The notes: generated from the sequence alone by a model not told the origin. A stretch of 64,000 bases of DNA from Patescibacteria group bacterium (GCA_018816445.1 JAHIVO010000001.1:8354-72353), one strand, 5' to 3'. Positions 10,893 through 51,439 are shown, counted from the stretch's first letter. Numbers and translations are program-made.

Positions 10893-11861
10893 ATGAAAAA
10901 AACAACAAATATAAATAATTGTCCGATATGCAATAGTACATTAATTAATCGGGTAATTATTGCATATGATAAAACGATGCGAAGTCTTAGCTCATTATAT
11001 CCTTCAAATTTATTTTTTAAGGATTATAAAAAAATCTCGCTTCAAATCTATCAATGCCAAAGGTGTAGCTTTGCATTCTTGAATCCAAGATTATCAAGAG
11101 AGGGATTGAATCAATTATATGGGAATCTTTATAAAACAGTTTATTATGATGACAAAAGGCGTCATAAAGAATTCCAATATCAAGATTATTTTAAAAAACT
11201 AAAACATTTAAAAAAAGACGGCCCCGGGAAACTATTAGATTTTGGTTGTAATACAGGTGTATTCTTAAAGATTGCCCAAGATAATTGCTGGGACGTCATG
11301 GGTATAGAATTATCTTATCAAGCATCTCAGATAGCTAAAAAAAGGTTGGGAAATGATAGGATCATTACTGGTGCTATTGATGAATTAAAAAATCTAGACA
11401 TACAATTCGATATAATTTCGTTTTTAAACGTTCTCGAACATCTGCCAGATCCTAATTTATATATAAAAATTGCATCCAGAAAGTTATCTCCCGGCGGATT
11501 ATTATTTATCGTTGTTCCAAATTACGACAGTATCAGAAGAATTTTAATCGGTGAAAATTGGTCTCTCATTCTCCTAGAGCATATTAATTATTTCACTCGG
11601 GATTCCGTTGCGTATCTGGCATCTAATAATGGTCTAATTCTGAAACAAGGAGGTCCCATCGATTATGAAATATTTAACAGAGGATTTTTTGAAAAAATAA
11701 AAAAGATGTTTCGGAAAAATGAGGGCTCAAGTTATTCGTTTAGTTACGGACGCGATGCCTTAATAAAATTAGCATTCTTAGCATTAATAACTGATTTTGC
11801 GGGCCTGGCCATCAACCGCGGCGATTTTATTTATTATGTGATGGCTAAGAAATCCCTATAG
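10893..11861 (+). CDS. SAM-dependent methyltransferase with an N-terminal Cys4 zinc ribbon (NDP-sugar C-/O-methyltransferase-like)
   Basis: CPICNS…CQRCSF zinc ribbon, then 'LLDFGCNTGVFL' motif I and 'FDIISFLNVLEHLPDP'. Confidence 0.6.
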   Translation: MKKTTNINNCPICNSTLINRVIIAYDKTMRSLSSLYPSNLFFKDYKKISLQIYQCQRCSFAFLNPRLSREGLNQLYGNLYKTVYYDDKRRHKEFQYQDYFKKLKHLKKDGPGKLLDFGCNTGVFLKIAQDNCWDVMGIELSYQASQIAKKRLGNDRIITGAIDELKNLDIQFDIISFLNVLEHLPDPNLYIKIASRKLSPGGLLFIVVPNYDSIRRILIGENWSLILLEHINYFTRDSVAYLASNNGLILKQGGPIDYEIFNRGFFEKIKKMFRKNEGSSYSFSYGRDALIKLAFLALITDFAGLAINRGDFIYYVMAKKSL

Positions 11862-12572
11862 TTAATGTTTATTTATTATCGAAACCATACTACTGTCCCT
11901 GAATGGTACTGGTTCGGTAAAGGTATAATCAGGAAATCTTAACTTAATATCTTCCAAAGACCAAAAGTGTACATAAAAAAGATGTTTTTTACCAACTTTT
12001 TTAATTGGTGCCAAAATAAAAACGCCGTGATCAGCCAAACAATTTTTAACATTATTCAATGCAAAAGACAATTTAGAGTCTTTAACAATGTGTTGGATAA
12101 CGTCAATCATTAAAATTAGATTAAACCTACCGTTTATTTTGTCGGTACTGACATCCTTTTTCGTAAATTCGAAGTTGAGAAATTTTTCTTTTAGATTTGG
12201 AAACAGCGAATCGGTTATATCCAGTCCCGTATAATTTTTTACGCCTAAATCATAAAGCAGCTGGGCGTAGAAGCCATTTCCACAGCCGATATCCAAGACC
12301 GATGCTGATTTGAAGTCTATGTTTTGTTCTTGACATAAATCTACTACAACTTTGGCAGCCTCAGCATACATAATCTTATTATCCTGTTCAGGCAGACCTT
12401 CATCGCCCACTCCCCTAATAGCCATCTTGTATTTTGAGAATCTATCGTGCCAATACCGAGACGCATTGTAATCATCACCACTACCATATTTCATGGGTCC
12501 AATTATTAGTTTATAAATTACATTCTTAATAAAAACCAGGGGATTTCTAATAAATTTTGGTATGGAGTTCAT
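11862..12572 (-). CDS. Class I SAM-dependent methyltransferase
   Basis: 'VLDIGCGNGFYAQ' motif I and 'FNLILMIDVIQHI'. Confidence 0.7.
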   Translation of the reverse strand: MNSIPKFIRNPLVFIKNVIYKLIIGPMKYGSGDDYNASRYWHDRFSKYKMAIRGVGDEGLPEQDNKIMYAEAAKVVVDLCQEQNIDFKSASVLDIGCGNGFYAQLLYDLGVKNYTGLDITDSLFPNLKEKFLNFEFTKKDVSTDKINGRFNLILMIDVIQHIVKDSKLSFALNNVKNCLADHGVFILAPIKKVGKKHLFYVHFWSLEDIKLRFPDYTFTEPVPFRDSSMVSIINKH

Positions 12573-12600: not shown

Positions 12601-14469
12601 TTATTGAAATTCATAAATGAAATATTTTAGTTCATTTATTTTAGGAATAGCTGGAGGAAATTGAGTATCATCGTAAGTAACAAGTAGCCTAGTGAAATTT
12701 AATGAAAAATCATCAATTTTGTTTAGATTATCATTATTAAATAAATAATTAATATTGTCCTCGGAGTCATTATCAACAGAGGAAATTACATATATGTTTT
12801 TATTTGATGATTTATTTATATATTCTTTTATAGCTGAAATATCAATATAGGGAGTTTTTTCTTGATGATAAGCTGGCCAAATGATACCGTCTAAGCCATA
12901 GTGGTATTTTAATATGGCAGTGAATCTCCCAATTGTGTCATAATAATTTGTTGGCATAATTACAATATCGTTTGGAGTAAATTTATTTGCAATATTTGAC
13001 AATTGTTTGCCCTGGTTACGATTTTCTGAATAGAAAAAAATTTTAGATAAGAATATAATATTTAATAATAAAATAATTATTACTAAACTTATCGGTATTA
13101 TATTAATTTTATTGAATTTTTTTAATGCTTGGAATTCAATTCTTTTTATATCTACAATAACAATAGAAGCTAATAACATTACGTAAGGGATAAAGATAGC
13201 CCAATATCTTCTAAGGGCCCAGGGTTGATCCCTGGCGATTAAAGGATCGTAAAGATAAAGAAAACTTGGCAAAACAATTATAGTTATTAAAAAAATAATA
13301 AATTTATATTGTCTTTTGTAGAGACCAATTAAAGAAAGTATGATATAGGGAAGAATTAGATAGAAAAATAAAATTGAGAATACATAATTTATATCACCAA
13401 GTTTATCAACCTCTTTGATCCTATATGTACTTGTACTAATAAAATTTTCTTGTATAAAAACATTATCTGCCATAGTAGGAATGATTTTCGTAGAGAAAAC
13501 TACCAATGGGCGTACAACAAATCTAGCTACATGCATAATTTGAGCGTAAGAGGGGGGCAGAAAAAATACTATATATCCGATAAAAATACAAATCAAAAAT
13601 AAAATAACTAGCAGAATATTTTTATTGATTTTTTGATTGGGCCATTTATTTTTTTGATAATTATTTATTATAATTATTACTATCAAAAAGGTAAAAAGAT
13701 GGAAAATTCCCTCAACCCTTACAAAAAGTGTGACTAATATTGGAATTAAACTAGATAATACAAACGAAAGATTTTTATTATAATATCCTTTTATTAGTAA
13801 ATATATGCCAAACCAAAAGAGAAAAAGCATAATATTTTCGGAAAGTGTTTGACGGCTGAAATATATTGTTAAGTAATGGGAAGCAAAAAAGAGTACGAAT
13901 AAAATTCCCGCCCATTTATTTTTTATTGATTTTCCCAAAAAATAAAAGATACAAAGGGACAAAAATAGAAGTAAACTATTTGCCAAAAAGAGCCCTAATA
14001 GTCCGCCCCACGTATAAAATAATGCTAAATATACTGGATATCCAATAATTCTACTTAATACCAATTGATTACTGAAGGTTGATTTAATTGATCCACTATA
14101 GCTAAAGCTTGGATCAAGATTAATTTTTCCCTCGTGAGATAAAATTACCGCATTAGCTACATAACCACCATAATCCCTGGTAGCACCAAGGTTTTCATAA
14201 TAAAAAAGACCATTAACAATTGAAAATATCAGTAATAATAATATTAGAGCAACTTCAAATTTTATAACTTTATTATTACTTTTTTTACGATACCTTTTGA
14301 AATGATACCAGATTAAAAATAATATAAATATTCCAATTATTATTGGCGCGATCCATTGTGCAAAGATTTGAAAAACTTCAAAAAAAGAGCTTATTATGCC
14401 GGCGATTATCAGTCCAATTACAAAAAATGATATTTTTACAATATTTTTTTCAATAATATTTTCATTCAT
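12601..14469 (-). CDS. GT-C-like polytopic membrane glycosyltransferase (PMT/ArnT-like); paralog of 46458..48122
   Basis: About 12 or more predicted TM helices over 622 aa. The N-terminal half resembles 46458..48122 (the FYFLGKSIKNK / FYLLIKEVFNKK region). Confidence 0.45.
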   Translation of the reverse strand: MNENIIEKNIVKISFFVIGLIIAGIISSFFEVFQIFAQWIAPIIIGIFILFLIWYHFKRYRKKSNNKVIKFEVALILLLLIFSIVNGLFYYENLGATRDYGGYVANAVILSHEGKINLDPSFSYSGSIKSTFSNQLVLSRIIGYPVYLALFYTWGGLLGLFLANSLLLFLSLCIFYFLGKSIKNKWAGILFVLFFASHYLTIYFSRQTLSENIMLFLFWFGIYLLIKGYYNKNLSFVLSSLIPILVTLFVRVEGIFHLFTFLIVIIIINNYQKNKWPNQKINKNILLVILFLICIFIGYIVFFLPPSYAQIMHVARFVVRPLVVFSTKIIPTMADNVFIQENFISTSTYRIKEVDKLGDINYVFSILFFYLILPYIILSLIGLYKRQYKFIIFLITIIVLPSFLYLYDPLIARDQPWALRRYWAIFIPYVMLLASIVIVDIKRIEFQALKKFNKINIIPISLVIIILLLNIIFLSKIFFYSENRNQGKQLSNIANKFTPNDIVIMPTNYYDTIGRFTAILKYHYGLDGIIWPAYHQEKTPYIDISAIKEYINKSSNKNIYVISSVDNDSEDNINYLFNNDNLNKIDDFSLNFTRLLVTYDDTQFPPAIPKINELKYFIYEFQ

Positions 14470-14474
14470 TAGTA

Positions 14475-15980
14475 TTATACCTTCTCAATTATTGCTTCTG
14501 AAATCGGATGACCATCAAAAATATTAGATTGTTCAATATTCATTAGCTTGAATATTGTAGGCGCAATGTCTATAATATTGTTCTGCTTTAATTCCATATT
14601 TGTTTTAATATCCGGTCCGTAGGAAATGAATATTCCGTCAAGGCTGTGATATTGAAATTTTCCTTTAACAAAAGCAGGACCCATAATACTTTTTATCAGA
14701 TATTTTGAAGAATATAATATTATATCCGGCCCATTTCTCACCTGTCTGCCAGAATATATTTTTTGTGAATCTGCTACAACGTCAAATACACGATCCTTAT
14801 TGTCAGGTCCTTTTATCTTGGTGAGTTTATCAATAATCTCTTGTTTAATTTTTTTATATTCATTATCATTGTCAATAATTCCATTTGAAAATCTGCCTTT
14901 ACGGTTTAGATAGATTAAGTTTGATAAGCTATATACAGATGAATTAAGTGTATCAATGCCAATATCCTGGTCTACATATATTGGTAATATTTTTTTAATT
15001 TTGTCATATATTTTTTTCGCAAACTTGAATATAGTGGGATATTTCCACATAAAGGAAGTCAGACCAGACAGATTTAAATTTAATGCTTTTTTTGCAGATT
15101 TATCTCTGCTTTCTGAAATTTTACCGAAATCAATATGCTTTTTATTTTTTGATTTAAATTGCAGATAATTTTCTTTAGCCAGCCATTCATTCAAAAAGAA
15201 TACTCCTTTCAAATCAGAAAAACCGTGATCAGACATAACTAGTAAGTTAGTATTTGCCGGCAAGTTATCCGCGAACCACCCAAGGTAGCTATCAATATCT
15301 TGGTAAATATTTATTACTGACTGATTCTTTTTAAGATCTTGATTAATTAAATCATGATATTTTGTATGTTGTATCCAGTCTGTACCGCTAAAAAGGACGA
15401 AGAAAAAATCCCATGGTTTATTTTTGAATAGTTTTTGTGCACATTTAAACCTTGTCTGTTCAATGTCACGTATCTCATGAATATGCTCTTTCAGTTTACG
15501 TTCTTTTTTTCCTTCTGGAGCTAATTTATATTTGGTGAACTCAGGGATTTCATCAATTAATTTTTTAGGAAAAACAAAGTCATCTCCGCGCGTGAGCAAA
15601 CTTGTTATAACTATTTCAGATAATTTTGGGGGAAAAGATACAGGTAAATTAACTAAAATACATTTTTTTCCAATTTCATCCAACTGTTCGTAAAAGGTTT
15701 TTACTTTTATTGAATTACTTGAAATAGGTGCATAGTCGTCAAGATCATTCTCTGGCGTCACGAATTCAAAACAACCGTGCTGACCAGGATTTGCACCCGT
15801 TGCAAATGACGTCCAGGCAGGTGCAGTAACTGGGGGTAGGGTAGTTCTAAGGGAGCTGAATGATCCATTTTCCTTAATTTTTTTTATATTGGGCAAGAAA
15901 CCCCCGTCAATTAGTTTATTGATCAATTGCCAATTTACTCCGTCTAGGCCTATGACTATTACTTTTTTACTATTATTCAT
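14475..15980 (-). CDS. Alkaline-phosphatase-superfamily protein (type I phosphodiesterase / nucleotide pyrophosphatase, PF01663-like)
   Basis: 'VIVIGLDGVNW' and 'LPPVTAPAWTSFATGANPGQHG', the metal-ligand and catalytic Thr/Ser region of NPP/AP-family enzymes; 'SDHGF' later. Confidence 0.6.
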   Translation of the reverse strand: MNNSKKVIVIGLDGVNWQLINKLIDGGFLPNIKKIKENGSFSSLRTTLPPVTAPAWTSFATGANPGQHGCFEFVTPENDLDDYAPISSNSIKVKTFYEQLDEIGKKCILVNLPVSFPPKLSEIVITSLLTRGDDFVFPKKLIDEIPEFTKYKLAPEGKKERKLKEHIHEIRDIEQTRFKCAQKLFKNKPWDFFFVLFSGTDWIQHTKYHDLINQDLKKNQSVINIYQDIDSYLGWFADNLPANTNLLVMSDHGFSDLKGVFFLNEWLAKENYLQFKSKNKKHIDFGKISESRDKSAKKALNLNLSGLTSFMWKYPTIFKFAKKIYDKIKKILPIYVDQDIGIDTLNSSVYSLSNLIYLNRKGRFSNGIIDNDNEYKKIKQEIIDKLTKIKGPDNKDRVFDVVADSQKIYSGRQVRNGPDIILYSSKYLIKSIMGPAFVKGKFQYHSLDGIFISYGPDIKTNMELKQNNIIDIAPTIFKLMNIEQSNIFDGHPISEAIIEKV

Positions 15981-15994
15981 GCTGAATATGTGTA

Positions 15995-17458
15995 TTAAAT
16001 GTCAGTTTTTTTATTAATATTTTTACCAGTAAAAAAATTCCTTAGTATTAATATATCATTTTTTGAGAATTCTTTAAACATTACTAAGGTGATCAGATAT
16101 ATCAATACTAGTATTGAATATAATGCTAATATTTTAAAATTAGAAAAATCCAATTCGGTAATCAATACCTTACAAACTATTCCAACTACTAAGGAGGCAA
16201 TAATAATTTTAATAATGGAAATCCAGTTAGTGATTTTATTAATTTTTTTCCAAACGTAAATATATGAAAACAACAAACCAATCACCCCAACGAATGTTGT
16301 TGCCCAGGCAGCACCATTTATGCCATACTTTGGTATTAACAGCAAATTAGCGGCTATACTGGCAAGAATAAGCATGATAGTAAGGTATAATGACATCTTT
16401 TGCTGGCCTATAGAAATAATAATTGTCATCATAACCCTGGTTAAGGCTAACAATGACATGCCAAATACCAGAATACTAAAGGACGTTATGGCAGGGTTAT
16501 ATTTGTCGGAAAATATTAACGGAATTAAATTACCTGCGGTTAAGCTAGCAATAATAGTTAAAGGTCCAAGAATAATCAAACTTAGTCGGATGGCTTGCTT
16601 AATATTTTCCCTAACTTTTTCAATAAGGTTCTTATAATAATAGCCTGAAATAATTGGCAGTAAACTGATAACAAAGCCAGCTAAAATTATATATAAAAAT
16701 CTAGATAAAGTAGTAGCGGAATTGTAATAGCCAGCCGAATCTTGATTATTAGAAAAATACTTTACAAGAAATAAATCTATACTCATCAATAAAGGAAAGC
16801 CAAAAGCATAAAAGGAAATAGTAATAGTTGTATTAAATAACTTTTTTCCGGGAAAATGATCTAGTCCATTTTTAATTTTTGTAAACGACATAGCGGTAAT
16901 TAAAGATACTAGGGCGGCAAGAAAATACGCTAATAATATTGCATCTAAGTCTAAGCCCATTAGTAAAAAGATTACAACTAATACCAGTTTACTTATAGCG
17001 GCAATAATAGCAATTAATGATTGTTTATTAAAACGTTTTAAGCCATTTAAAACGCCAATATATACTGTTCTGATGCCGTAGAGCGGTATTAATAGAGCGG
17101 AAAGTCTAATGTAGTATGCCATTTGAGGATCACCAAACCCCCGGCTGATCAGATCGGCTAAGCCGTAATAAATCAAGGCAATTATCGGAGTTAATATGAT
17201 CTCAATCTTTAAACTTTTTCTTAAAATTGTTTTTGCTGCAGTTTCCTTCTCAGCGATACTGCGGCTAATTCCTTGAAAAAATCCTGAGGTTAGTATAGTA
17301 TTAAGAAGATTTATCAGATATATAACAATTCCAAAAGTTCCATATAAAGCTGGATCAAAAAAACGTCCTATTAATATCTGTATAATATAACCGCTTCCCA
17401 TAAAAATTAGATTTGCAAAAGTAAGGTAAGCGGCGCCTTTAAATAATAAATTATTCAT
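15995..17458 (-). CDS. Wzx-type oligosaccharide flippase (MOP/polysaccharide biosynthesis protein family)
   Basis: 487 aa with about 12-14 TM helices and polysaccharide-biosynthesis-protein family architecture. Confidence 0.65.
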   Translation of the reverse strand: MNNLLFKGAAYLTFANLIFMGSGYIIQILIGRFFDPALYGTFGIVIYLINLLNTILTSGFFQGISRSIAEKETAAKTILRKSLKIEIILTPIIALIYYGLADLISRGFGDPQMAYYIRLSALLIPLYGIRTVYIGVLNGLKRFNKQSLIAIIAAISKLVLVVIFLLMGLDLDAILLAYFLAALVSLITAMSFTKIKNGLDHFPGKKLFNTTITISFYAFGFPLLMSIDLFLVKYFSNNQDSAGYYNSATTLSRFLYIILAGFVISLLPIISGYYYKNLIEKVRENIKQAIRLSLIILGPLTIIASLTAGNLIPLIFSDKYNPAITSFSILVFGMSLLALTRVMMTIIISIGQQKMSLYLTIMLILASIAANLLLIPKYGINGAAWATTFVGVIGLLFSYIYVWKKINKITNWISIIKIIIASLVVGIVCKVLITELDFSNFKILALYSILVLIYLITLVMFKEFSKNDILILRNFFTGKNINKKTDI

Positions 17459-17527
17459 ATTTATTGAAAACTACAATTATTCATAATTAATAAAAAGACA
17501 GAAGTTTTTTATTTAATAATTGGGGAA

Positions 17528-17980
17528 ATGATATATTATCATATGGAGAATAAAAGCAATATGATAAGGTTATTTAAACCAACAACAATTAAGAATATAA
17601 TAGAATATTTCAGAGAGATATCACGACTTATTTTTGTAATATTAATAATAATATATTTATTAAGCCTAATTGTAGATAATTACTGGGAAGGTTTTTTTTC
17701 AAGCACTTTTAGTTTAAATATTATTTTATTGATGACCGTGATAGCTGGGATATTTACCATCATTACAGGGGAGGGCAGGAAGTCTAAATTTAATGTTAAT
17801 ATCCAATCTAATTTTAAAAGAAATTTTTTAAAGATGCCGTTAGTATTATTTATCACCTTACTGGTAATTGTAATGACAGTAAATGTTTTTGAAAATATAG
17901 AATTTTTTGAAATAATTTTAACTATATTAATTGGTATACTATCAGCGCTTATTATATCAATATTATTCATTAATGAATAA
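17528..17980 (+). CDS. Small hypothetical membrane protein (3-4 TM)
   Basis: Hydrophobic ORF with no recognisable motif. Confidence 0.35.
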   Translation: MIYYHMENKSNMIRLFKPTTIKNIIEYFREISRLIFVILIIIYLLSLIVDNYWEGFFSSTFSLNIILLMTVIAGIFTIITGEGRKSKFNVNIQSNFKRNFLKMPLVLFITLLVIVMTVNVFENIEFFEIILTILIGILSALIISILFINE

Positions 17981-18024
17981 TTAACACTCATTAATTGATA
18001 TGATATGATGGTATGATGTTTAAT

Positions 18025-18309
18025 TTAGAGGTATCCCAAGCTTTTTAATCTTTCCTTAACTGATTCGTCATCATCTTTACTAAATTTTTTATCTGTATCT
18101 TGTTTTGGTTGCTTAAGAACTTCTTCTAACACAAAATTAACAAATCCCTCAACAGAAGAAAATTCACTTGAGGATTTTATTTTTTTTTGAATTTGTTGAA
18201 ATATTTTTTCGTCCAGTTTAATTGAATTCATTTTTTTATAATTAATGCTTATTAAATTATTATTTACAATAACCTCAGAAAACCAAATTCCAAATACGTT
18301 CGTGAGCAT
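18025..18309 (-). CDS. Small ribbon-helix-helix (CopG-like) protein with a CysD-like C-terminal tail; paralog of 21202..21420
   Basis: 'NSIKLDEKIFQQIQKKI…SSEFSSVEGFVNFVLEEVL' has RHH strand-helix-turn-helix topology. The C-terminus 'KKFSKDDDESVKERLKSLGYL' resembles the other RHH protein and the CysD C-terminus. Confidence 0.5.
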   Translation of the reverse strand: MLTNVFGIWFSEVIVNNNLISINYKKMNSIKLDEKIFQQIQKKIKSSSEFSSVEGFVNFVLEEVLKQPKQDTDKKFSKDDDESVKERLKSLGYL

Positions 18310-18344
18310 AATTATGCATCTCTTTTAAATTTATATTTATATTA

Positions 18345-19586
18345 TTAATTAAGTGTGATAATGCCACCTGCTACAACTGCGCCATTTCTGATTAAAATAA
18401 ATCTACCTAACTCCGGAATATTATTAAAATCTTCAATTATTACTGGATTATCAGCTTTGAGTTTGACTGTAGCAATTTCCATCTCTTTAAGTTCATTAGA
18501 TTTGTCTTCAATAATCTTAAGTGAAGATGAATTTATGCGATTGGTTATAGATTCTGCGAACACACCAATTTCCTGAGTGGCGCATTGTAGTGTGAGATTC
18601 TCTTTAATGCTTAATGGCTCTTTTGACATCCAAAATAGATTTCCCACTACCTCGTCGGTTGATTTTGGTTTATTATCACTTTGGGTGGCAATATCACCAC
18701 GATCTACAAAAATTGGGTCTATTAATGTTATTCCAATATTTTCTCCGGCTGAAGCCGATTCCAGCTGTTGGTTCATTTTTTCTATTGTTTTAATTGATGA
18801 TTTATTACCTTTTGGTAAGAAGGTTACTTCATCGCCTTTTTTAATTGTGCCAGATGCAATTTGTCCGGCAATAATGCGTATTTCGTCAAATTTATATAAA
18901 TCCTGGATTGGCATTCTAAATGGCTTATTGGAGAGATTTTTTGTTTCCTTGAACGTTTCCAGTGCTTCTAAAACTGTTTTATCTTCGTACCAATCCATAT
19001 TATCTGATTTTTTTGCAATATTATCTCCTTTGAAAGCTGAGATTGGAATAATGAAGGTAGGAGTTATTTTAATTTTTTTAAGAAATTCCAGCAACTCTTT
19101 TTTTACTTTTATGTAATTTTCTTCTTTATATTTTACCTTGTCCATTTTATTAATTACAACGATTACTTGTTCCAGACCCAACAAGCTTAAGAATTTTGCA
19201 TGTCGCTTTGTTTGCTCTTGGATACCTTCATTGGCATCTACGATTAAAATTGCTGCTTCGGCCTGTGAGGCACCTGTTATCATATTTTTTGTAAATTCAA
19301 CATGGCCTGGTGCATCAATGATGACATACTCCCTGGCATCAGTTTTGAAAAATATTTGTGCAGTGTCAATAGTAATATTCTGGTCTCTTTCTTCAATCAT
19401 GTGATCCATAAGATAAGCGTATTCAAACTGCTTGCCTTGTTGTTTGCAGATTGTTTTTACCTCAGATATTTTTTCTTCTGTTATTGATTTTGTATCACAT
19501 AATAGTCGGCCAATAAGTGTTGATTTTCCATGATCAACATGTCCTACAAAAACAATTTTAAATTTTGATTCTTTTTGATTCCTCAT
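18345..19586 (-). CDS. cysN: Sulfate adenylyltransferase subunit 1 (CysN GTPase; no APS-kinase domain)
   Basis: 'VGHVDHGKSTLIGRLL', 'NITIDTA', 'IIDAPGH', 'NMITGASQAEAAILIVDA', 'QTKRHA' and 'NKMDKV' reproduce CysN/NodQ G1-G4 blocks. At 413 aa there is no room for a CysC domain. Confidence 0.85.
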   Translation of the reverse strand: MRNQKESKFKIVFVGHVDHGKSTLIGRLLCDTKSITEEKISEVKTICKQQGKQFEYAYLMDHMIEERDQNITIDTAQIFFKTDAREYVIIDAPGHVEFTKNMITGASQAEAAILIVDANEGIQEQTKRHAKFLSLLGLEQVIVVINKMDKVKYKEENYIKVKKELLEFLKKIKITPTFIIPISAFKGDNIAKKSDNMDWYEDKTVLEALETFKETKNLSNKPFRMPIQDLYKFDEIRIIAGQIASGTIKKGDEVTFLPKGNKSSIKTIEKMNQQLESASAGENIGITLIDPIFVDRGDIATQSDNKPKSTDEVVGNLFWMSKEPLSIKENLTLQCATQEIGVFAESITNRINSSSLKIIEDKSNELKEMEIATVKLKADNPVIIEDFNNIPELGRFILIRNGAVVAGGIITLN

Positions 19587-19623
19587 ATTTTTTTAATTTT
19601 GATATTTAATATTTCAATTAGTA

Positions 19624-20439
19624 TTACATGTATCCTAATTTTCTCAAGCGCTGCATAACATAAGCAGCTTCTTTGTCTTGAGAGCGGCCAGCTCTTTCGG
19701 AGCTTTTTGATTTTTTAATTTCTTCGATAATTTTATCAACAGTATCAGCGTCTGATTTAATTGGCTTTGTATTTGGTTTGCATCCGAGGCTCCGATATCG
19801 TAAGCCATTTTTGGCAAAGTATAGTTTATTAATAGGCAGATTTTCTCTTTTTATATATTTCCAAACATCCACTTCAGTCCAATGGAGCAAAGGATGGATT
19901 CTAACATGCGTCTGATCGTCTGAAATTGACCTGTATTGGTTCCAAAGTTCGGGGGGCTGGTTCTTGTAGTCCCAGTTAAATTTTTGGTCTCTAGGAGAAA
20001 ATACGCGCTCCTTAGCCCTAATACCATGCTCATCCCGTCTAATTCCTAGAATTAGCGCCTTAAAATCATGTTTAGCCATGCATTGCTTTAGTGCATTAGT
20101 TTTAAGTTCATTACAGCACGTAAAGCCATCTCCTTCGCCGCACTTAACGCCCCTGGCCATAGCTTCTTTATTCATAGCAATTATTAGATTTAACTTCCAT
20201 TCTTTGGCATATTTATCTCTGAATTCATACATTTCTTCAAACTTAGCTCCAGTGTCAATGTGAATAACAGGGAAGGGGATGTGGCCAAAAAAAGATTTAC
20301 GGCATAATTGGATTAAAGTAGTTGAGTCTTTTCCAATAGACCAGAGAACAGCTATTTTTTTAAACTGATTATAAGCCTCACGGATGATGTAAACACTTTT
20401 GTTTTCTAGTTCATCTAAATGATTCATATTATTTGACAT
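19624..20439 (-). CDS. cysD: Sulfate adenylyltransferase subunit 2 (CysD, PAPS-reductase-fold ATP pyrophosphatase)
   Basis: 'LWSIGKDSTTL' PP-loop, 'IHIDTGAKFEEMYEFRD', and the C-terminal '…SERAGRSQDKEAAYVMQRLRKLGYM' matching the conserved CysD tail. Confidence 0.85.
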   Translation of the reverse strand: MSNNMNHLDELENKSVYIIREAYNQFKKIAVLWSIGKDSTTLIQLCRKSFFGHIPFPVIHIDTGAKFEEMYEFRDKYAKEWKLNLIIAMNKEAMARGVKCGEGDGFTCCNELKTNALKQCMAKHDFKALILGIRRDEHGIRAKERVFSPRDQKFNWDYKNQPPELWNQYRSISDDQTHVRIHPLLHWTEVDVWKYIKRENLPINKLYFAKNGLRYRSLGCKPNTKPIKSDADTVDKIIEEIKKSKSSERAGRSQDKEAAYVMQRLRKLGYM

Positions 20440-21193
20440 TAAAATAACTAATTAGTCCATTAAATACATCTATAGGTTGGTTAACCTTAAATGGAATATT
20501 TTTTGCGATGGCAATGGCATCTGGGTGATGATCGCCTTTCAATTCATTGCCTGTTGAGGTAATTTTTGGTAAAGTCTGAACTGGAGCTTTGTCATAATCT
20601 GTAAATCCATGATCAGAAAGAATCAATACTTTTTCATCAAGTTCAAAAATTTTATTTACTGCTTTATCAATTTTTATATAATAATCTATTAAGGATTCTC
20701 CTCCCCAGTGTAAATGGGACATCTTATCCAATGCGGTATATACAGCAATAAATAGTTCTGGTTTACTATCTCCTGTAACAGAGACAATTTTATTGGTAAT
20801 TTCTGTGATTTCAGTATTCAGCTCTTCTTGAGTAAGGGGGACACCATAACCAGGAGGATTAAAGTAAATATTATAATTATAAGGTGGTACAATAAAAGGA
20901 ATGTTCAATGCTTTAACCGATATATTATTTCTACTGAGAATATCCCATATAAAATCAACTTTTACGTCATTCCGAGTTTGGACTTCACCGTCTTTAACAA
21001 AATCCAGGTGGTTATGTTCTTCGGGTAGTTTTCCAGAAAACATTGAACACCAAACTGAAGCAGACCATGGTTTTTGTTGCAGGCTGATTGTATAATTATC
21101 ATGCTGTGACAATATTTTTTTAAAGGTGGGCAATTTGTCAATATTGGGTTTGATAATATCCCAAGTAGCACCGTCAAGCCCAATTATAAACAT
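20429..21193 (-). CDS. Short alkaline-phosphatase-superfamily (type I phosphodiesterase/NPP-like) protein
   Basis: 'FIIGLDGATWD', 'SASVWCSMFSGKLPEEH' and 'LSDHGF'. Overlaps the cysD start by 11 nt. Confidence 0.55.
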   Translation of the reverse strand: MFIIGLDGATWDIIKPNIDKLPTFKKILSQHDNYTISLQQKPWSASVWCSMFSGKLPEEHNHLDFVKDGEVQTRNDVKVDFIWDILSRNNISVKALNIPFIVPPYNYNIYFNPPGYGVPLTQEELNTEITEITNKIVSVTGDSKPELFIAVYTALDKMSHLHWGGESLIDYYIKIDKAVNKIFELDEKVLILSDHGFTDYDKAPVQTLPKITSTGNELKGDHHPDAIAIAKNIPFKVNQPIDVFNGLISYFNVK

Positions 21194-21201
21194 AGAACTT
21201 T

Positions 21202-21420
21202 TTATAAATAATCTAAATTTTTTAATCTATCGCGTACTCTTTTTTCATCTTCTTTGGTAAATCCCTTTTTTTCTTCATAGGAAGAAGAAACTAATTGTCT
21301 TAGCACATAAATTACATAACTGGAAACAGAATGAAAACCCGTACCGCTGATTTTTTCTTTTAATTTTTCATTAAGTTGAACTGGAATAGAGATGGTAGTA
21401 TATCTTTTTTCATTTTTCAT
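21202..21420 (-). CDS. Small ribbon-helix-helix (CopG-like) protein with a CysD-like C-terminal tail
   Basis: 'TTISIPVQLNEKLKEKISGTGFHSVSSYVIYVLRQLV' is a canonical RHH. C-terminal 'KGFTKEDEKRVRDRLKNLDYL'. Confidence 0.55.
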   Translation of the reverse strand: MKNEKRYTTISIPVQLNEKLKEKISGTGFHSVSSYVIYVLRQLVSSSYEEKKGFTKEDEKRVRDRLKNLDYL

Positions 21421-21619
21421 AGGTTTTTTAACTAATAATTGAATATGTTTATAATATAATTAATTAATTATATAGTCAAGCATTTTAATTAAATATAATG
21501 ATAATATTTGATTAATTCCTAATATTAGCTAAATATATATTTTACTAAGATATAATCTTGGTTATTGAATCGAAACTAATGTATAATTTATCTATAATTT
21601 TCAATGAAATATTTATTAT

Positions 21620-23155
21620 ATGATTAAGAAATCAACACTTTTTTTTACGGTATTCTCCATTTTGTTTGTATTGTTATGCTTCTATTCTTTTTTTATTGAT
21701 TTATACCCACAAAAAAGCAATACAGATTTATGGACACATTTGGCAATTATCAATGAATTAAAAGTTAATGATTATTCAGAAGTTAATGCGCCATTTTTTA
21801 CTGATGGAGAGAATGATCCACGTAGTGGGATATATTTAACTGGTATAGCTTTAGTGTCAAAAATATTTAATATTTCAACTATAAATACATATTTGTTTTT
21901 TGGAATAATTAATATAATATTTTTTCTAATATGCAGCTTTTTATTTAGTAAACACTTTTTAAAAAGTAAATATAATTATTTATTTCCATTATTACTAATT
22001 TTTTTATGGGGTCCCAGTAGGAATATTTATGCAGGCATGTTTTCCTTAAATGAAATTTTATGGATAGGTCCATTCTATCATTTTTTTACTTTCAGTTTAT
22101 TACTATTGTCATTGATTTATGCTGACAAGCTAATTGAGCAAAAAAGAAGCGTATCTTCTTATTTATTAGTGATAATTCCAGTATTCGTGTTATATAATAC
22201 ACATATGCTGACAGGAATTATTTTTTTTGTTGCTCTATACGCCCTGATCACTGCAAAAATAATAAATTATAAAAAAATAACAAGAGAACTTATTTTTTTA
22301 TTTAGTATTCCATTCTTATGTTTTTTATTAAATTTTTTATGGCCCTTGTATGATCAATGGAATTATTTTTTTAATAGGGGTGCAGTAAATGCCATACAAG
22401 ACGTTAATAATTCGGAAACCTATAGAGGCTTAGATTATTATTGGAAATACATTAATTCATGGATTTTGGTTGGTGGTTTAAGTTTGCTAGGAATTATTTT
22501 TAGTCCGAAAAACAAAAAATATTTTACATTTATAATATTATTATTTATTATTACTTTGATCATAATATTTTCAGGCTTAACACCTTGGCCTATACAATTT
22601 TATTGGAGATTCTTCCCTTTAATTGTCTTGGCCGGCGTTATGGGCTGGATGTCCCTTTTTCAAATTATTAATAAAAGGTTAATATTCATCCTTATTGCAC
22701 TTATTATAATAATTGGGCTACTTTTCACGATGAATAAAATGGTTGTATTTAAAGATTGGGAGCCATATACATATCAGCAATCCCAATATCAATCTGAATC
22801 AATATCTTATGATATTTTAAATAATATATCAAAAAAAAGTGTTGTTTTTACGGATGAAGTTGAATCACATATTTTATCAGGATTAACAGGGTTAAACGTT
22901 GTTGGCGTCAGACCATCTCATGCTGGCTTTAATCAAACTGATATACAAAATCAAGGCTACGATAATATTAAGGCAGCATACGAAGAACCTGAAAAAATTG
23001 ATGAACTTATCCCAAAATATCAAATAACACATATTTTATTAAAAAGAAAAATATCAGAAAAAAACTTTTTATTATCTCAGTATGTTAATAATAAATACAG
23101 GTTGATTGATATTAGTGATGATTTTTATTTGTATTACGTTGGTAATGACTTATGA
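21620..23155 (+). CDS. Polytopic membrane protein (Wzy/GT-C-like, uncharacterised)
   Basis: More than 10 TM helices over 511 aa with a C-terminal soluble domain. Sits in the GT-rich locus. Confidence 0.4.
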   Translation: MIKKSTLFFTVFSILFVLLCFYSFFIDLYPQKSNTDLWTHLAIINELKVNDYSEVNAPFFTDGENDPRSGIYLTGIALVSKIFNISTINTYLFFGIINIIFFLICSFLFSKHFLKSKYNYLFPLLLIFLWGPSRNIYAGMFSLNEILWIGPFYHFFTFSLLLLSLIYADKLIEQKRSVSSYLLVIIPVFVLYNTHMLTGIIFFVALYALITAKIINYKKITRELIFLFSIPFLCFLLNFLWPLYDQWNYFFNRGAVNAIQDVNNSETYRGLDYYWKYINSWILVGGLSLLGIIFSPKNKKYFTFIILLFIITLIIIFSGLTPWPIQFYWRFFPLIVLAGVMGWMSLFQIINKRLIFILIALIIIIGLLFTMNKMVVFKDWEPYTYQQSQYQSESISYDILNNISKKSVVFTDEVESHILSGLTGLNVVGVRPSHAGFNQTDIQNQGYDNIKAAYEEPEKIDELIPKYQITHILLKRKISEKNFLLSQYVNNKYRLIDISDDFYLYYVGNDL

Positions 23156-23168
23156 TGAAGCAAGTCAT

Positions 23169-24719
23169 TTACTTGCTTAGAGTTACGTCGATTGCATTAA
23201 TTTTTACTAAGCTTTGATTTTTCTGTAAGTCGGGAATGTTAATAGAAAAAATTATTTTTCCTTCATAAAAGTAATCACTATCTAGATTAAAACTGGTTTG
23301 TGATATATAATTATTTTCAAATTCTTGAGGCGGATTATAACTTGATAAAAGATATTCATAATTTGAAATAGCATCAATTTCTATAGTATTAAGTTTTTTC
23401 ATCCCCAATGGGGTTGGATTAAAAAATGAGTTTTCAGAAAAAGAAAAATATCCAGTGATGGCATCATTATTTTGGACTAACAAATGATTTTTTTCAAGCA
23501 CTATCTTATTTAAAGTATCACCGGAAAGATTAACAATTTTTGGGGCTTCTTCAAGTCTGGTAGAATCTAAAATTAAAATATGGTCATCATTAATTGAAAT
23601 TGTTTGATTTGAAGCGGGGATATGCCAAGCTGGAATTTTTATGGACAAAGCATTAGTATAAATTGAATGTTGATTAATTGATTCGGAAATATCGTCGCGT
23701 ATCATAACCGAATTTGCAATTACCAAGAGAGGTTGGTTAAGGATAATTTTTGTGAGAGAATCAGCTGAACCAGTTTTAATTTTATATAAACCACTTGGCA
23801 TGTTTTGAATGCTGATAATATCAGATTGTTTTGGCCCTAATTCATTATTAGCACTTATATTGCCGTCATCAGTAATTACTTGATTGCTAATAGCTTTATC
23901 GGTTGAACTTGTAATTGTAGTTTCTAAGGGATCCGCACCTTCATAATAATTAAAATCAACTTTTATTACTTCTAACTGTAGATCACCAGGTGAAGTAAGA
24001 TATGTGTAGGCGTTAAATGTCCCTTCTATGTATGGCGTAAAAGTTCTATCCTGTGTGAATGTTTTGCCCATAAGTGATTGAGCAACCATTTCTGACTGAT
24101 CTAGATTTGAATAATAATCCGCAATAGCATAATTGATTATAGGTTCTGAATTATTATCAGGTGATATTATATTATATACTTCCCTTGGTGGATTGGATAA
24201 AAAATCTTCAATAGAATTATATTTTTTGTTTTTTTGCCATAATGAAAGATCATCAGAAATGATATTTTCCCATGATAATTCGTTTAAATTAGGATTGAAT
24301 ATTGGTTTATATGAAATTGTATTATCAATATTTTTAATTCCGAGTAGAATATTGTTTGACCCATGGATGCTATAGTCAAGTTTAATATCTACCTTATTGA
24401 TTATATCTTCCTTTACGCCTGAAGGTAGTTGAATTTCAAATTCAGTTAAATCATTATTGATGATTTGGTTATCTATGCGATATTGTTGGCTGCCGTTTTG
24501 ACTAATGTATGACACATCTGATATTGGGGAAATAGGGGATATTAGTTGACTATTATCTGGATATGAATATAAAAAATGGACTTGATCCGAAAAAAATAAA
24601 AAATTTTTATTAAAAAGGCCAATAAATAGGATGATAGTAAAAATAATAATTACTTCTAAAATAATTCTTTTTAAAGTTGAAATTTTATCATTTTTTATAT
24701 AAAAGTTTGAAAAATTCAT
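23169..24719 (-). CDS. N-terminally anchored exported protein of unknown function; paralog of 48187..49728
   Basis: Single N-terminal TM (IILEVIIIFTIILFIGLF) and a large extracytoplasmic domain. Shared blocks with 48187..49728 include 'WENIISDDLSLWQKNKKYNSIEDFLSNPP' ~ 'WTWITKDDLILFQKSDKLYESIDYFLDNLP' and 'GYFSFSENSFFNP' ~ 'GFFFFSSENSFDP'. Confidence 0.5.
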   Translation of the reverse strand: MNFSNFYIKNDKISTLKRIILEVIIIFTIILFIGLFNKNFLFFSDQVHFLYSYPDNSQLISPISPISDVSYISQNGSQQYRIDNQIINNDLTEFEIQLPSGVKEDIINKVDIKLDYSIHGSNNILLGIKNIDNTISYKPIFNPNLNELSWENIISDDLSLWQKNKKYNSIEDFLSNPPREVYNIISPDNNSEPIINYAIADYYSNLDQSEMVAQSLMGKTFTQDRTFTPYIEGTFNAYTYLTSPGDLQLEVIKVDFNYYEGADPLETTITSSTDKAISNQVITDDGNISANNELGPKQSDIISIQNMPSGLYKIKTGSADSLTKIILNQPLLVIANSVMIRDDISESINQHSIYTNALSIKIPAWHIPASNQTISINDDHILILDSTRLEEAPKIVNLSGDTLNKIVLEKNHLLVQNNDAITGYFSFSENSFFNPTPLGMKKLNTIEIDAISNYEYLLSSYNPPQEFENNYISQTSFNLDSDYFYEGKIIFSINIPDLQKNQSLVKINAIDVTLSK

Positions 24720-34964: not shown

Positions 34965-35621
34965 TTATTTAATAATTGATAAGATCATATTTTGTCTATC
35001 TTTCTCGTCTAATTCTTTCGATATTTGACCATATTTATTTTGATAGTAAATATCTGAATTCTCAGGAAGTATAAAACTTTTTTCATTTAAATTGAAATGT
35101 TTATGATGAGGGTTATTGGATTGTTTTTCACGATATGGAACAGAAAAAATAAATTTATTTATTGTTAAGTGTAGTAAATGTTTAAACATATCCTGCATAT
35201 CATTAATATGTTCTAAAAATTCAAAAGCAATTATAATATTAAATTTGTTACGTGGTTCATGAGTTGTAAATGTAATGTTAGATTTTTTAAAATGTGTGTT
35301 TGCGTATTGTATTGCTTTCTCAGAAATATCAAAACCAGTAATGGATGCCTTTTTATATGATTTCGCTATCGTATGGCAGCCATATCCCGCACCGCAAGCA
35401 TAATCTAATACGGTATCATTATTTGAAATAAACTTGGTCGCAAAAAGGTATCGTTCCTTATGGGTTTTTGTGTTTAAATTTAACTCGCACCCTAAAACTC
35501 TTTCGCCATTATTGAGAACATCGTGGTATTTATTGCTAATTCTGATTTGTCGTTTCTCGCGTAATATATGTATAAATTCTCCTATAGTTAAAAGTAGCAC
35601 ATTTTTTATTCGGGTTATCAT
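34965..35621 (-). CDS. Class I SAM-dependent methyltransferase
   Basis: 'VLDYACGAGYG' motif I and 'FNIIIAFEFLEHI'. Confidence 0.65.
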   Translation of the reverse strand: MITRIKNVLLLTIGEFIHILREKRQIRISNKYHDVLNNGERVLGCELNLNTKTHKERYLFATKFISNNDTVLDYACGAGYGCHTIAKSYKKASITGFDISEKAIQYANTHFKKSNITFTTHEPRNKFNIIIAFEFLEHINDMQDMFKHLLHLTINKFIFSVPYREKQSNNPHHKHFNLNEKSFILPENSDIYYQNKYGQISKELDEKDRQNMILSIIK

Positions 35622-44957: not shown

Positions 44958-46010
44958 CTACTTTATTATTGGTAATTCTACCTGTTGTTTTGTCTTGGCT
45001 GATTCGTAAATGGCCTCAATAATTTCTACTGACTTGCGCGCTTCACGTCCGTCCATGGCTACATCTTTGTAATTACTAAAATGATCAATAATACTTCGGT
45101 AAACAAAGATATGCCTTGGCGAGGATCCCTGAAATAATCCTAATTCATATACCTGAGGCGGAATATTATTTTGTATTTGAGGTTCAGGATAGTCTTCAAC
45201 TTCCCAAGTTTCAAATTTATCAATAGCTTTGCCGCCGATTTTTATCGTACCTTTACTGCCCATGACAGTCAGGGAACATTCCAGGTTTTTTGGATACGTA
45301 TTTATTGAAAATTCAAGAGTAGCATAAGCTCCATTGGTGAATTGGAGTATGGCATAAGCTTCATCTTCGGTTTCTGTATTGTGGGCAACAGTATCAATTT
45401 TAGCAAAAACATTTTTAACTGGCCCAAAAAACCATTGCAGAATATCAACGTAATGATCGCCTTGGTTTAATAGTGCTCCGCCATCAAGCTTTTTTGTGCC
45501 GCGCCAATTAACTTCATCAAAATACGCTTGCGGTCTGGTCCAGCGGATTGTTAATGCTCCGGAATATAATTTACCAAATTTCCCTTCTTCTATGGCTTTC
45601 TTGGCAATAATTACTGCTGGGTTGTATCTGACTTGTTTAACTACAAAAAGTTTTTTCTGATTTTTTTCAAAAGCTTTGATAATTTCATCAATTTCTGTTG
45701 TATTCAAAGCTAGAGGTTTTTCTATCAACGCATGCTTGCCTGCATTAGCTGCGGCAATTCCCATTTCAGCGTGCAGTCCGTTGGGCGTGCAGATTGACAC
45801 TATATCAATATCATCTTGTGTTAGCATTTTATTATAATCCGTATACCATTTTGTTTTATATTTTTCTCCATACTCCTTTGCTTTTAACTCTGTTTTATCA
45901 CAAAGGGCGGCGAGATTTAATTCATCTTTATAGAGTTGTATAGAACCAAAATGCTGACTAGAGATTCTGGAACAACCAATAATTCCAAAATTAATTTTTT
46001 TATTCTTCAT
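44958..46010 (-). CDS. Gfo/Idh/MocA-family NAD-dependent sugar oxidoreductase (WbpB/GnnA-like 3-dehydrogenase)
   Basis: 'INFGIIGCSRIS' Rossmann motif, 'IVSICTPNGLHAEM' and 'EKPLA'. Confidence 0.75.
   Translation of the reverse strand: MKNKKINFGIIGCSRISSQHFGSIQLYKDELNLAALCDKTELKAKEYGEKYKTKWYTDYNKMLTQDDIDIVSICTPNGLHAEMGIAAANAGKHALIEKPLALNTTEIDEIIKAFEKNQKKLFVVKQVRYNPAVIIAKKAIEEGKFGKLYSGALTIRWTRPQAYFDEVNWRGTKKLDGGALLNQGDHYVDILQWFFGPVKNVFAKIDTVAHNTETEDEAYAILQFTNGAYATLEFSINTYPKNLECSLTVMGSKGTIKIGGKAIDKFETWEVEDYPEPQIQNNIPPQVYELGLFQGSSPRHIFVYRSIIDHFSNYKDVAMDGREARKSVEIIEAIYESAKTKQQVELPIIK

Positions 46011-50164: not shown

Positions 50165-51439
<1,275 letters not shown>

Follow-up and report, generated by a model that had tools for sequence, protein, structure and literature searches.

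What do proteins of the alkaline phosphatase (AP) superfamily do beside an ATP sulfurylase in a surface-glycan locus? The question is raised by a stretch of 64,000 nucleotides from a Patescibacteria group bacterium (GCA_018816445.1 JAHIVO010000001.1:8354-72353, hereafter the window), where the minus strand encodes a 254-aa AP protein lying against cysD (the short AP, 20429..21193) and a 501-aa one beyond cysN (the long AP, 14475..15980). Both open reading frames (ORFs) had been placed at these positions in an earlier sequence-only reading, which proposed that the two proteins process adenosine 5′-phosphosulfate (APS) or 3′-phosphoadenosine 5′-phosphosulfate (PAPS), or are the missing sulfo- or phosphotransferase acting on the glycan. 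The answer that we favour, with a rough probability of 45%, is that the region is a glycan-sulfation module within a very large cell-surface polysaccharide locus, its AP-fold enzymes handling or transferring activated sulfate. The pair formed by the short AP and CysD probably marks an undescribed route for sulfate onto cell-surface glycans, and the short AP is the more interesting of the two AP proteins, on stronger grounds than the earlier reading had.

The linkage of the short AP to CysD was examined in 80 loci, fetched from GTDB species-representative genomes and searched with the window proteins by tblastn. Among these, 44 had enough flanking DNA to be assessed for CysD within 2.5 kb, and a CysD-like gene was found at this distance or less from the short AP in 43 of them. 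The linkage spans more than 10 phyla and both domains: carriers are Patescibacteria, Chloroflexota/Dehalococcoidia, Hydrothermarchaeota, Archaeoglobales, ANME-1 (Methanophagales), Methanosarcinales, several DPANN lineages, Heimdallarchaeota and others. Four gene orders occur, namely cysD-cysN-AP (33 loci), AP-cysD without cysN (23 loci), AP-cysD-cysN, which is the order of the window (7 loci), and cysD-AP (3 loci). Since the order varies between lineages, the association does not stem from inherited synteny alone. Natural fusions, with the AP followed by the CysD-like part in one polypeptide, are present in a nanohaloarchaeal genome (L036) and on a related contig (L044). In the group without CysN, which consists mainly of Hydrothermarchaeota, the CysD-like protein has diverged to about 30% identity with the window CysD and keeps the PP-loop and the characteristic C-terminus. 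We conclude that the constant core consists of the short AP and a CysD-like protein, and that the CysN GTPase, absent from 23 loci, is an add-on.

Some of these loci have peculiarities of their own. The sole assessable locus without a CysD-like gene (L065, 7668..10756) reads small ORF, TauE, TauE, short AP, with cysD absent from the 10 kb upstream and the 3.2 kb downstream. The arrangement of the window, with a CysD 94% and a short AP 75% identical, recurs on contig CAZJUO010000020.1 (L006) of a metagenome-assembled genome labelled ‘uncultured Gammaproteobacteria’; it also shares both proteins that flank the cassette in the window (21620..23155 and 23169..24719), and is probably wrongly binned Patescibacteria DNA. 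An intein (Intein_splicing and LAGLIDADG domains) interrupts the CysD genes at L087 6624..8735 and L074 2..1981, on DPANN or archaeal contigs, and is inserted just before the conserved SLGC motif. In Hydrothermarchaeum (L002 9563..10267, also L019), a 234-aa ORF with no Pfam match overlaps the end of the CysN-less CysD-like gene and is followed by a small ORF and AglB; it is conserved only between these two related genomes.

What kind of enzymes are the two AP proteins? Against Pfam PF01663 (gathering score 23 bits) the long AP scores 123.3 bits (E=2.3e-35) and the short AP 69.9 bits (E=3.9e-19), and the Pfam scan gave no PF00884 sulfatase match for either at E<=0.01. They are 22% identical to each other over about 250 residues (E=2e-10). 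The motifs previously read in them are indeed there: GLDG..W in both (as the pair IGLDGATW/IGLDGVNW), a nucleophile loop, KPWSASVW in the short AP and LPPVTAPAW in the long one, and SDHGF in both. The N-terminal segment of the long AP aligns with phosphonoacetate hydrolase, Thr52 falling on the known Thr nucleophile of that enzyme, and Ser44 would be the nucleophile position of the short AP, because the pairwise alignment places it on Thr52. In an alignment of 21 homologues, the two-metal site residues of the short AP (D7, the S44 nucleophile, D156, H160, D194, H195 and H222) are invariant, and so are Arg74, Lys219, His60 and His62; for the long AP, a 15-sequence alignment has T52, D201, H205, D251, H252 and H445 invariant and D13 nearly so. 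A sulfatase identity was considered and rejected, as there is no PF00884 match and the loops read P-W-S-A-S-V-W and P-V-T-A-P-A-W, with no C/S-x-P-x-R formylglycine motif.

The predicted structures point the same way. The AlphaFold2 model of the short AP (pLDDT 94.9) has as best Foldseek matches ENPP6, Xac NPP (a nucleotide pyrophosphatase/phosphodiesterase), ENPP1/3/5 and PhnA, with E values of about 1e-10 to 1e-11 and a TM score (query) of about 0.7, and no sulfatase is among the best matches. That of the long AP (pLDDT 84.7) finds ENPP1/3, PhnA and Xac NPP (E of about 1e-16 to 1e-17). Sequence searches of both proteins against solved structures gave weak or N-terminal matches only, and the short-AP profile gave nothing significant there (best E=0.04). 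Both proteins lack a signal peptide or N-terminal membrane segment, the first β-strand starting at residue 2-7, and for this reason both are expected to act in the cytoplasm, where APS is made. By every feature examined, the two belong to PF01663, in the NPP/PhnA branch of the AP superfamily, with Thr as the nucleophile of the long AP and Ser as that of the short one; family and nucleophile were what the sequence-only reading had wanted checked. Judged by its site residues and modelled fold, the short AP is a two-metal enzyme of the cytoplasm with its catalytic site intact.

Both fall into COG3379, ‘predicted AlkP superfamily phosphohydrolase/phosphomutase’, a group without experimentally defined function whose name JGI gives to many homologues. 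Within it the short-AP clade is a small and distinct subset, a tight family of 250-260 aa with 41-76% identity across Bacteria and Archaea: an exhaustive profile search yielded 27 cluster representatives (50% identity clusters) at E<1e-30, versus 2712 at E<1e-10, the matches below the stricter threshold merging into the ~500-aa long-AP family. A 291-aa PF01663 protein that lies beside AglB in Halobaculum, considered as a further member of the short-AP clade, is not one.

With which substrate could such an enzyme be supplied? The window CysD reaches 356.7 bits on NF003587 (cutoff 195) and the window CysN 367.5 bits on TIGR02034 (cutoff 336.1), both NCBIfam models, and the two genes are 37 bp apart; on these profile matches, they encode a genuine ATP sulfurylase. 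The C-terminal tail of CysD is kept in about 63 of 68 CysD-like sequences, almost every full-length one among them, the remainder being fragments or running off their contig. The later steps of the canonical route are missing. With the E. coli CysC sequence as the query, validated at 237 bits on PF01583, tblastn found no APS kinase in 1.2 Mb of short-AP loci (about 87) or in the whole window. Bacterial CysN/NodQ proteins often have an APS-kinase domain fused to them; it is missing from all 45 CysN proteins of the short-AP loci, and the window CysN is also without it. A Pfam scan of nearly all window ORFs of at least 90 aa (all but four short ones) detected no PF01583 or Sulfotransfer_* domain in the window, and no APS-kinase or sulfotransferase Pfam family occurs in nine further Pfam-annotated neighbourhoods. 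A canonical PAPS pathway, taken as CysC together with a PAPS-dependent sulfotransferase in the locus, is thus not found in the window. We rejected the idea that cysC is hidden or split among the small ORFs that follow cysN: neither 18025..18309 nor 17680..17991 gives a Pfam match, and the former is a member of a family of small tail-motif proteins described below. The absence of an APS kinase and of a canonical sulfotransferase from the window makes it reasonable to see in the AP proteins the missing APS-processing or sulfo-transfer enzyme, as had been suggested; AP-superfamily N-glycan sulfotransferases are known, on genetic evidence, from Halobacterium (PMC11980604).

The genes form a tight string on the minus strand, from small ORF 1 through the short AP, cysD, cysN and small ORF 2 to a gap of about 570 bp, then the flippase, the long AP, the 622-aa membrane protein and a methyltransferase:

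21202..21420, minus strand: small ORF 1 (72 aa), assigned by neighbourhood clustering to the small-protein family of the cassette; ribbon-helix-helix (RHH)-like N-terminus, C-terminal tail ...RVRDRLKNLDYL; directly upstream of the short AP
20429..21193, minus strand: short AP (254 aa), minimal NPP-like core, PF01663 (E=3.9e-19)
19624..20439, probable start 20427, minus strand: cysD, ATP sulfurylase catalytic subunit (271 aa in the longest ORF) by NF003587 and PF01507; C-terminal tail ...QDKEAAYVMQRLRKLGYM
18345..19586, minus strand: cysN, ATP sulfurylase GTPase subunit (413 aa) by TIGR02034; no fused APS-kinase domain
18025..18231, minus strand: small ORF 2 (68 aa, counted from Met27 of the 94-aa ORF 18025..18309), tail-motif family; ends ...VKERLKSLGYL; tblastn matches in many loci, aligned from about residue 25
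15995..17458, minus strand: Wzx/MurJ-type polysaccharide flippase (487 aa) by PF01943 and PF13440, between the sulfate-activation genes and the long AP
14475..15980, minus strand: long AP (501 aa), COG3379/PF01663 (E=2.3e-35), NPP-like core with inserted cap regions
12601..14469, minus strand: polytopic membrane protein (622 aa), no Pfam match, immediately downstream of the long AP in the same orientation

Two details of the earlier description need adjusting. The short AP and cysD are tightly packed with either start of cysD, and the 11-nt overlap described between them exists only with the longest cysD ORF; the likely start is the ATG at 20427, one base past the short-AP stop, because homologues align from residue 5. 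Likewise, the AP proteins had been said to bracket cysDN: the short AP does abut cysD, but the long AP sits 2.4 kb past cysN, beyond small ORF 2, the ~570 bp gap and the Wzx-like flippase gene. The two small ORFs, 21202..21420 and 18025..18231 (both minus strand), are conserved parts of the module that had been missed. Concerning the flanks, the 622-aa membrane protein has a homologue in none of the fetched loci (tblastn-type locus search, at the threshold used) and is probably part of the same glycan operon as the long AP, and the proteins upstream of the cassette, 21620..23155 and 23169..24719, have homologues in the two closest loci, L006 and L007. The best promoter-like site of the minus strand, TTGACT-17-TATTAT at 21479..21451, is just 5′ of small ORF 1; such sites do not rise above background in the AT-rich DNA of the window, whose G+C content is about 30%.

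All this is embedded in a single, very large surface-glycan locus, which spans from about 0.25 kb to about 55 kb of the window. It contains genes for sugar epimerases/dehydratases, two of the UDP-glucose-dehydrogenase family, aminotransferases, many GT2 and GT4 glycosyltransferases, methyltransferases, two Wzx-type flippases, an STT3/PMT_2-like protein, and dTDP-rhamnose genes. At least three of its genes encode S-adenosylmethionine-dependent methyltransferases (10893..11861, 11862..12572 and 34965..35621), and an S-adenosylhomocysteine hydrolase gene is found at 50183..51439. A DUF1616 protein (46000..46455, minus strand) stands back to back with the 554-aa STT3/PMT_2-like membrane protein (46458..48122, plus strand). 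This pair hints at an oligosaccharyltransferase-type glycosylation system in a Patescibacteria genome, and DUF1616 and AglB/STT3 genes recur beside the cassette in Dehalococcoidia and archaeal loci.

Which other genes travel with the pair? All ORFs of 87 short-AP neighbourhoods were clustered into families, and the following recur:

46 of 87 loci: small protein of about 74 aa, often two in tandem
45 of 87 loci: CysN
27 of 87 loci: Wzx-type flippases
21 of 87 loci: sugar epimerases of the short-chain dehydrogenase/reductase (SDR) type
19 of 87 loci: GT4 glycosyltransferases
17 of 87 loci: TauE/SafE-type anion permease, directly upstream of cysD
15 of 87 loci: GT2 glycosyltransferases
11 of 87 loci: soluble sulfatase-like (PF00884) proteins with the nucleophile motif T-D-P-S-F in place of C-x-P-x-R
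7 of 87 loci: AglB/STT3 oligosaccharyltransferases

The cassette is thus made of CysD, the short AP and one or more small tail-motif proteins, joined in most cases by CysN and in some by a TauE permease, and a glycan context is observed in many of the loci, not in all. The nine further Pfam-annotated contig neighbourhoods agree with this picture. The small-protein family has 64 members, two of them in the window. They are about 70-75 aa long with an RHH-like N-terminus, RHH profile matches being weak (E of about 0.005, below cutoffs), and their genes are often tandem pairs upstream of the cassette. The tail [VI][KR]xRL[KR]xLGY[LMF] ends 62 of the 64, usually after an acidic stretch, and copies the C-terminus of CysD (...QDKE..M.+LR.LGYM), which persists also in the CysD-like proteins that come without CysN. 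Of the 18 TauE/SafE-type permeases, 11 have this motif too (e.g. IKERLRGLGYLP), in an internal loop at about residue 85-95:

Motif-bearing TauE-like ORFs directly upstream of cysD: L049, L053-L057, L065, L077, L080, L084, L085

The motif is therefore found in three unrelated proteins of one cassette, and the tail may be a docking or relay peptide. No description of the short-AP/CysD cassette, of the fusions or of the tail-motif proteins was found in the literature searched, which was covered in part.

The PF00884 proteins (cluster 8: L004 9877..11217, L060, L071, L086 17040.., L089 1939..3108 and others) have Thr for the formylglycine Cys and lack the Arg of C-x-P-x-R, TTDPSF being representative. 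With such a motif they are unlikely to be hydrolytic sulfatases, and by analogy with Agl30 and Agl31, two proteins compared below, they may be transferases. The SDR proteins adjoining the pair are 312-315 aa long, and their N-terminal sequence, inspected by eye, looks like that of an ordinary NDP-sugar epimerase/dehydratase. As SDR epimerases often flank the pair, a UDP-sulfoquinovose (SQD1/Agl3-like) route was considered and set aside; it would need sulfite, and no reductase is present.

Does the long AP belong to the same story? The two AP proteins had been treated alike, and here we depart from the sequence-only reading: the short AP is a near-obligate partner of CysD, whereas the long AP belongs to a huge family whose members mostly have no cysDN within 10 kb. 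This family (COG3379) consists for the most part of proteins of about 500 aa, and such a protein is encoded at most 10 kb from the short AP in about 10 of the 80 loci. In a sample centred on the long AP itself (39 metagenomic loci of at least 8 kb), a CysD-like gene was present in 5 loci, CysN in 2, the short AP in 1 and APS kinase in 3, a fourth kinase match being on a shorter locus. The co-occurrence with CysD that had been put forward as a check is thus near complete for the short AP (43/44) and low for the long AP (5/39). Nonetheless, sulfate-activation genes lie within 10 kb in about 7 of the 39 loci, versus the ~1% that we estimate for single-copy genes in a 20-kb window. It had also been argued that the linkage would be coincidental if relatives occurred in glycan loci that lack cysDN. 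Such relatives exist for the long AP, for which the objection therefore holds in part; in the aglB cluster of Halobaculum roseum, for example, the homologue has AglB for a neighbour, a sulfatase-like gene close by, and no cysD at up to 10 kb. We conclude that the linkage of the long AP to sulfate activation is real but facultative.

Individual long-AP loci illustrate it. Protein P0213 (783 aa) is a natural fusion of a long AP and, after it, a CysD-like domain with the typical tail. In L151 and its relative L166, cysN-cysD-TauE-small ORF stands beside PF01663-APS kinase-PF01663-PMT_2-GNAT-long AP-methyltransferase-deacetylase-GT2. In L104, a Sat-type ATP sulfurylase, a DHH-family protein and an APS kinase are about 6 kb from a long AP and GT2; the DHH Pfam match is weak (23.4 bits, cutoff 28.1), and that this protein is a phosphatase of 3′-phosphoadenosine 5′-phosphate (PAP) is a guess. 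Given these links to CysD, Sat and APS kinase, the long-AP family associates with sulfate activation whatever the type of sulfurylase. The occurrence of several paralogues per locus, with no canonical sulfotransferase seen, suggests acceptor-specific transferases rather than a clean-up phosphatase, and we regard the long AP as a candidate (sulfo)transferase for glycan modification. When the Halobaculum homologue served as the query in looking for kinship with Agl7 of Haloferax, a protein needed for sulfation of dolichol-phosphate-hexose, no named protein of Haloferax came up.

Comparison with characterised systems places the cassette between known enzymes. Xac NPP, ENPP1/3/5/6 and PhnA, the best structural matches to both models, share with the window proteins the Pfam family, the metal ligands and the position of the nucleophile; NPPs bind adenine nucleotides. 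They differ in that sequence identity is 11-15%, that the short AP has no cap and C-terminal regions (254 aa vs ~380-400) and a Ser instead of Thr, and that the window proteins are predicted to be cytoplasmic and are genetically coupled to an ATP sulfurylase, a setting not known for NPPs. With E. coli cysDNC, NodPQ/NodH and mycobacterial CysDNC/Stf the window has in common a CysD/CysN ATP sulfurylase giving activated sulfate, which in the rhizobial and mycobacterial systems serves glycoconjugate sulfation rather than cysteine synthesis. Those systems always come with an APS kinase, either as CysC or fused to CysN/NodQ as a domain, and with PAPS-dependent sulfotransferases of the canonical fold, whereas the locus in the window has neither kinase nor canonical transferase, the place of the kinase being taken by an AP-fold gene. 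Agl30 (VNG1056C) and Agl31 (VNG1057C) of Halobacterium salinarum are AP-superfamily N-glycan sulfotransferases, required for N-glycan sulfation as shown by deletion and sufficient for it upon heterologous expression in Haloferax; no sulfate donor was named and no link to cysD reported (PMC11980604). Like the window, they combine AP-superfamily genes and a surface-glycan (aglB) cluster without canonical sulfotransferase, and they act in the cytoplasm on the lipid-linked glycan, as we propose for the window proteins. By family description they are set apart: Agl30 and Agl31 are sulfatase-like (arylsulfatase/PF00884-type), one being membrane-bound, and the window proteins are PF01663 members with a full two-metal site and a Ser/Thr nucleophile.

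How, then, might sulfate be moved? The short AP would form a complex with CysD and use up a product of the sulfurylase reaction; we infer this consumption because it occupies the slot of cysC in E. coli cysDNC and because the sampled loci hold a short AP or an APS kinase, never both. Its chemistry could be sulfuryl transfer from APS, removal of pyrophosphate (PPi), or phosphorylation of APS, and of these, sulfuryl transfer through Ser44 is most likely. The sulfuryl group of APS would be taken onto Ser44 and passed from sulfo-Ser44 to a conserved acceptor, such as a nucleotide sugar or a lipid-linked sugar, and sulfation would then need no PAPS. The long AP would be an acceptor-specific transferase, as would the sulfatase-like proteins of other loci, sulfating the growing lipid-linked glycan before its export by the neighbouring flippase. 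A module of this sort is supported by the 43/44 linkage, the four gene orders, the fusions, the invariant active site, the lack of APS kinase and sulfotransferase in the loci, the flippases, epimerases, AglB/STT3 and glycosyltransferases nearby, the links of the long-AP family to sulfate activation, and the genetic precedent of Agl30 and Agl31. In its most ambitious form, CysD and the short AP would make up a two-component sulfation machine without APS kinase, in which APS is made at a shared interface and its sulfuryl group goes onto Ser44 and from there to the sugar, directly or by a relay, a second and PAPS-free route to sulfate esters; so specific a proposal is unlikely to be right in full, though it deserves to be taken seriously. 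The relay could run through the small proteins and the TauE loop, which share the ‘..RL+xLGY#’ tail of CysD; the conserved Tyr of the tail, for example, could carry sulfate as an aryl ester until an AP-fold transferase, the long AP for one, discharges it onto glycans.

Several points weigh against glycan sulfation by these enzymes. We know of no experimental or structural precedent for sulfuryl transfer by any PF01663 protein. Two-zinc sites of the AP superfamily with a Ser/Thr nucleophile strongly prefer phosphoryl over sulfuryl transfer, and dedicated sulfatases use formylglycine and one metal. The Agl30/Agl31 precedent belongs to the sulfatase-like (PF00884) branch, not to the NPP-like one. 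Pairs of short AP and CysD are also found outside obvious glycan loci (e.g. L013, L014, L016 and L027), and in most cases a long-AP homologue occurs without sulfate-activation genes around it. The cassette is carried by ANME-1, whose genomes also encode, at another place, an APS kinase that is expressed (PMC6286981); not every host would therefore have to sulfate without PAPS. Finally, the high conservation of the short-AP sequence between domains, at 45-76% identity, suggests a universal small substrate such as PPi at least as much as a glycan acceptor.

This last point leads to the possibility that the short AP is an assisting phosphohydrolase, a CysD-bound pyrophosphatase that pulls ATP sulfurylase or an enzyme of nucleotide clean-up (a PAP 3′-phosphatase), with sulfate moved by the long AP, the sulfatase-like proteins or unlinked enzymes. 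In established AP enzymology, a two-metal Ser site with invariant Arg74, Lys219, His60 and His62 is the kind found in phosphomonoesterases and PPi hydrolases; removal of a product would favour fusion or tight coupling to CysD, and the 23 CysN-less loci, having no GTP-driven pull, would need another. Yet housekeeping pyrophosphatases are general in cells, and a dedicated one in a near-obligate pair would be unusual; by the known equilibrium, removal of PPi alone leaves APS formation unfavourable, so that an APS consumer is needed, and the minimal two- and three-gene units contain none. The presence of the short AP in the cysC slot, in loci that never have an APS kinase, suggests APS and not PPi as its substrate, and as to clean-up, L104 may use its DHH-family protein, a weak and sub-threshold match, for PAP removal. 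On balance we consider this explanation rather unlikely, without dismissing it. The same slot could be read otherwise, the short AP being a non-homologous replacement of APS kinase that phosphorylates the 3′-OH of APS via phospho-Ser44, possibly with the PPi released by CysD, the PAPS then being used by AP-fold or other sulfotransferases. The short AP does sit after cysD-cysN, the position of cysC in E. coli, in 33 loci; the distribution is complementary, with 0 kinases in about 87 short-AP loci versus kinases in L104, L133, L151 and L166, all without short AP; and transfer through a phospho-Ser is native to the fold, as in the phosphomutases of the superfamily. However, no kinase and no PPi-dependent nucleotide 3′-phosphotransferase is known in the AP superfamily, ANME-1 holds both cysC and the cassette, and the complementarity is based on few loci and on 10-kb windows only, which makes such a replacement quite improbable.

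A more mundane explanation is that the AP proteins are ordinary glycan phosphodiesterases or phospho-group transferases, adding or removing phospho-alcohol or sugar-phosphate decorations, and that they lie near cysDN through nothing more than a shared glycan locus. PF01663 does include phosphodiesterases and the phosphoethanolamine transferases of glycosylphosphatidylinositol (GPI) synthesis, most long-AP homologues have no sulfate-activation gene within 10 kb, and the Halobaculum roseum homologue lies in an aglB cluster without cysD. For the short AP, however, it is excluded in practice by the 43/44 co-occurrence, the variable order and the fusions, and for the long AP it is weakened by the CysD-like fusion, by the APS kinase between PF01663 genes and by the linkage to a non-homologous, Sat-type sulfurylase; we judge it improbable overall. 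Last, an AP protein and a protein of the PAPS-reductase fold could form a phage-defence or DNA-modification pair similar to PglZ and BrxP of BREX type 4. The short AP does match BREX_PglZ_4 (NCBIfam) weakly, at E=0.005, with 15 bits for a cutoff of 140, and CysD matches BrxP with 53 bits, as against 357 bits on the CysD model. Neither AP protein has a PADLOC match, the pair is surrounded by CysN, the TauE permease and glycan genes, and no other BREX or Dnd gene is present. A BREX-4 or Dnd-like defence system was rejected on these grounds, model scores being below cutoffs and the neighbours being glycan genes, and the idea is effectively refuted.

In the textbook view, biological sulfation is PAPS-dependent and relies on one fold of sulfotransferase. 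The conserved cassette, present in at least 10 phyla of mostly uncultivated archaea and bacteria, pairs ATP sulfurylase with a minimal phosphatase-fold enzyme in the place of APS kinase, and it has a realistic chance of being a new sulfation route that needs no PAPS. With two to four soluble proteins, the system is small, which opens the question to in vitro work. Should the short AP turn out, more conservatively, to be a pyrophosphatase bound to CysD, a textbook enzyme would still gain a new accessory subunit. Were sulfate to be transferred or relayed by the AP-fold proteins, what was found for Agl30/Agl31 would extend to bacteria and to another branch of the superfamily, the supply of sulfate for that chemistry would be identified, and part of the large uncharacterised COG3379 would gain a function. 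It would also give a reason why reduced genomes without sulfate assimilation (those of the candidate phyla radiation and DPANN), and ANME-1, keep cysDN, and the two-component sulfation machine would account for the ‘orphan’ cysDN of all these lineages and of Dehalococcoidia.

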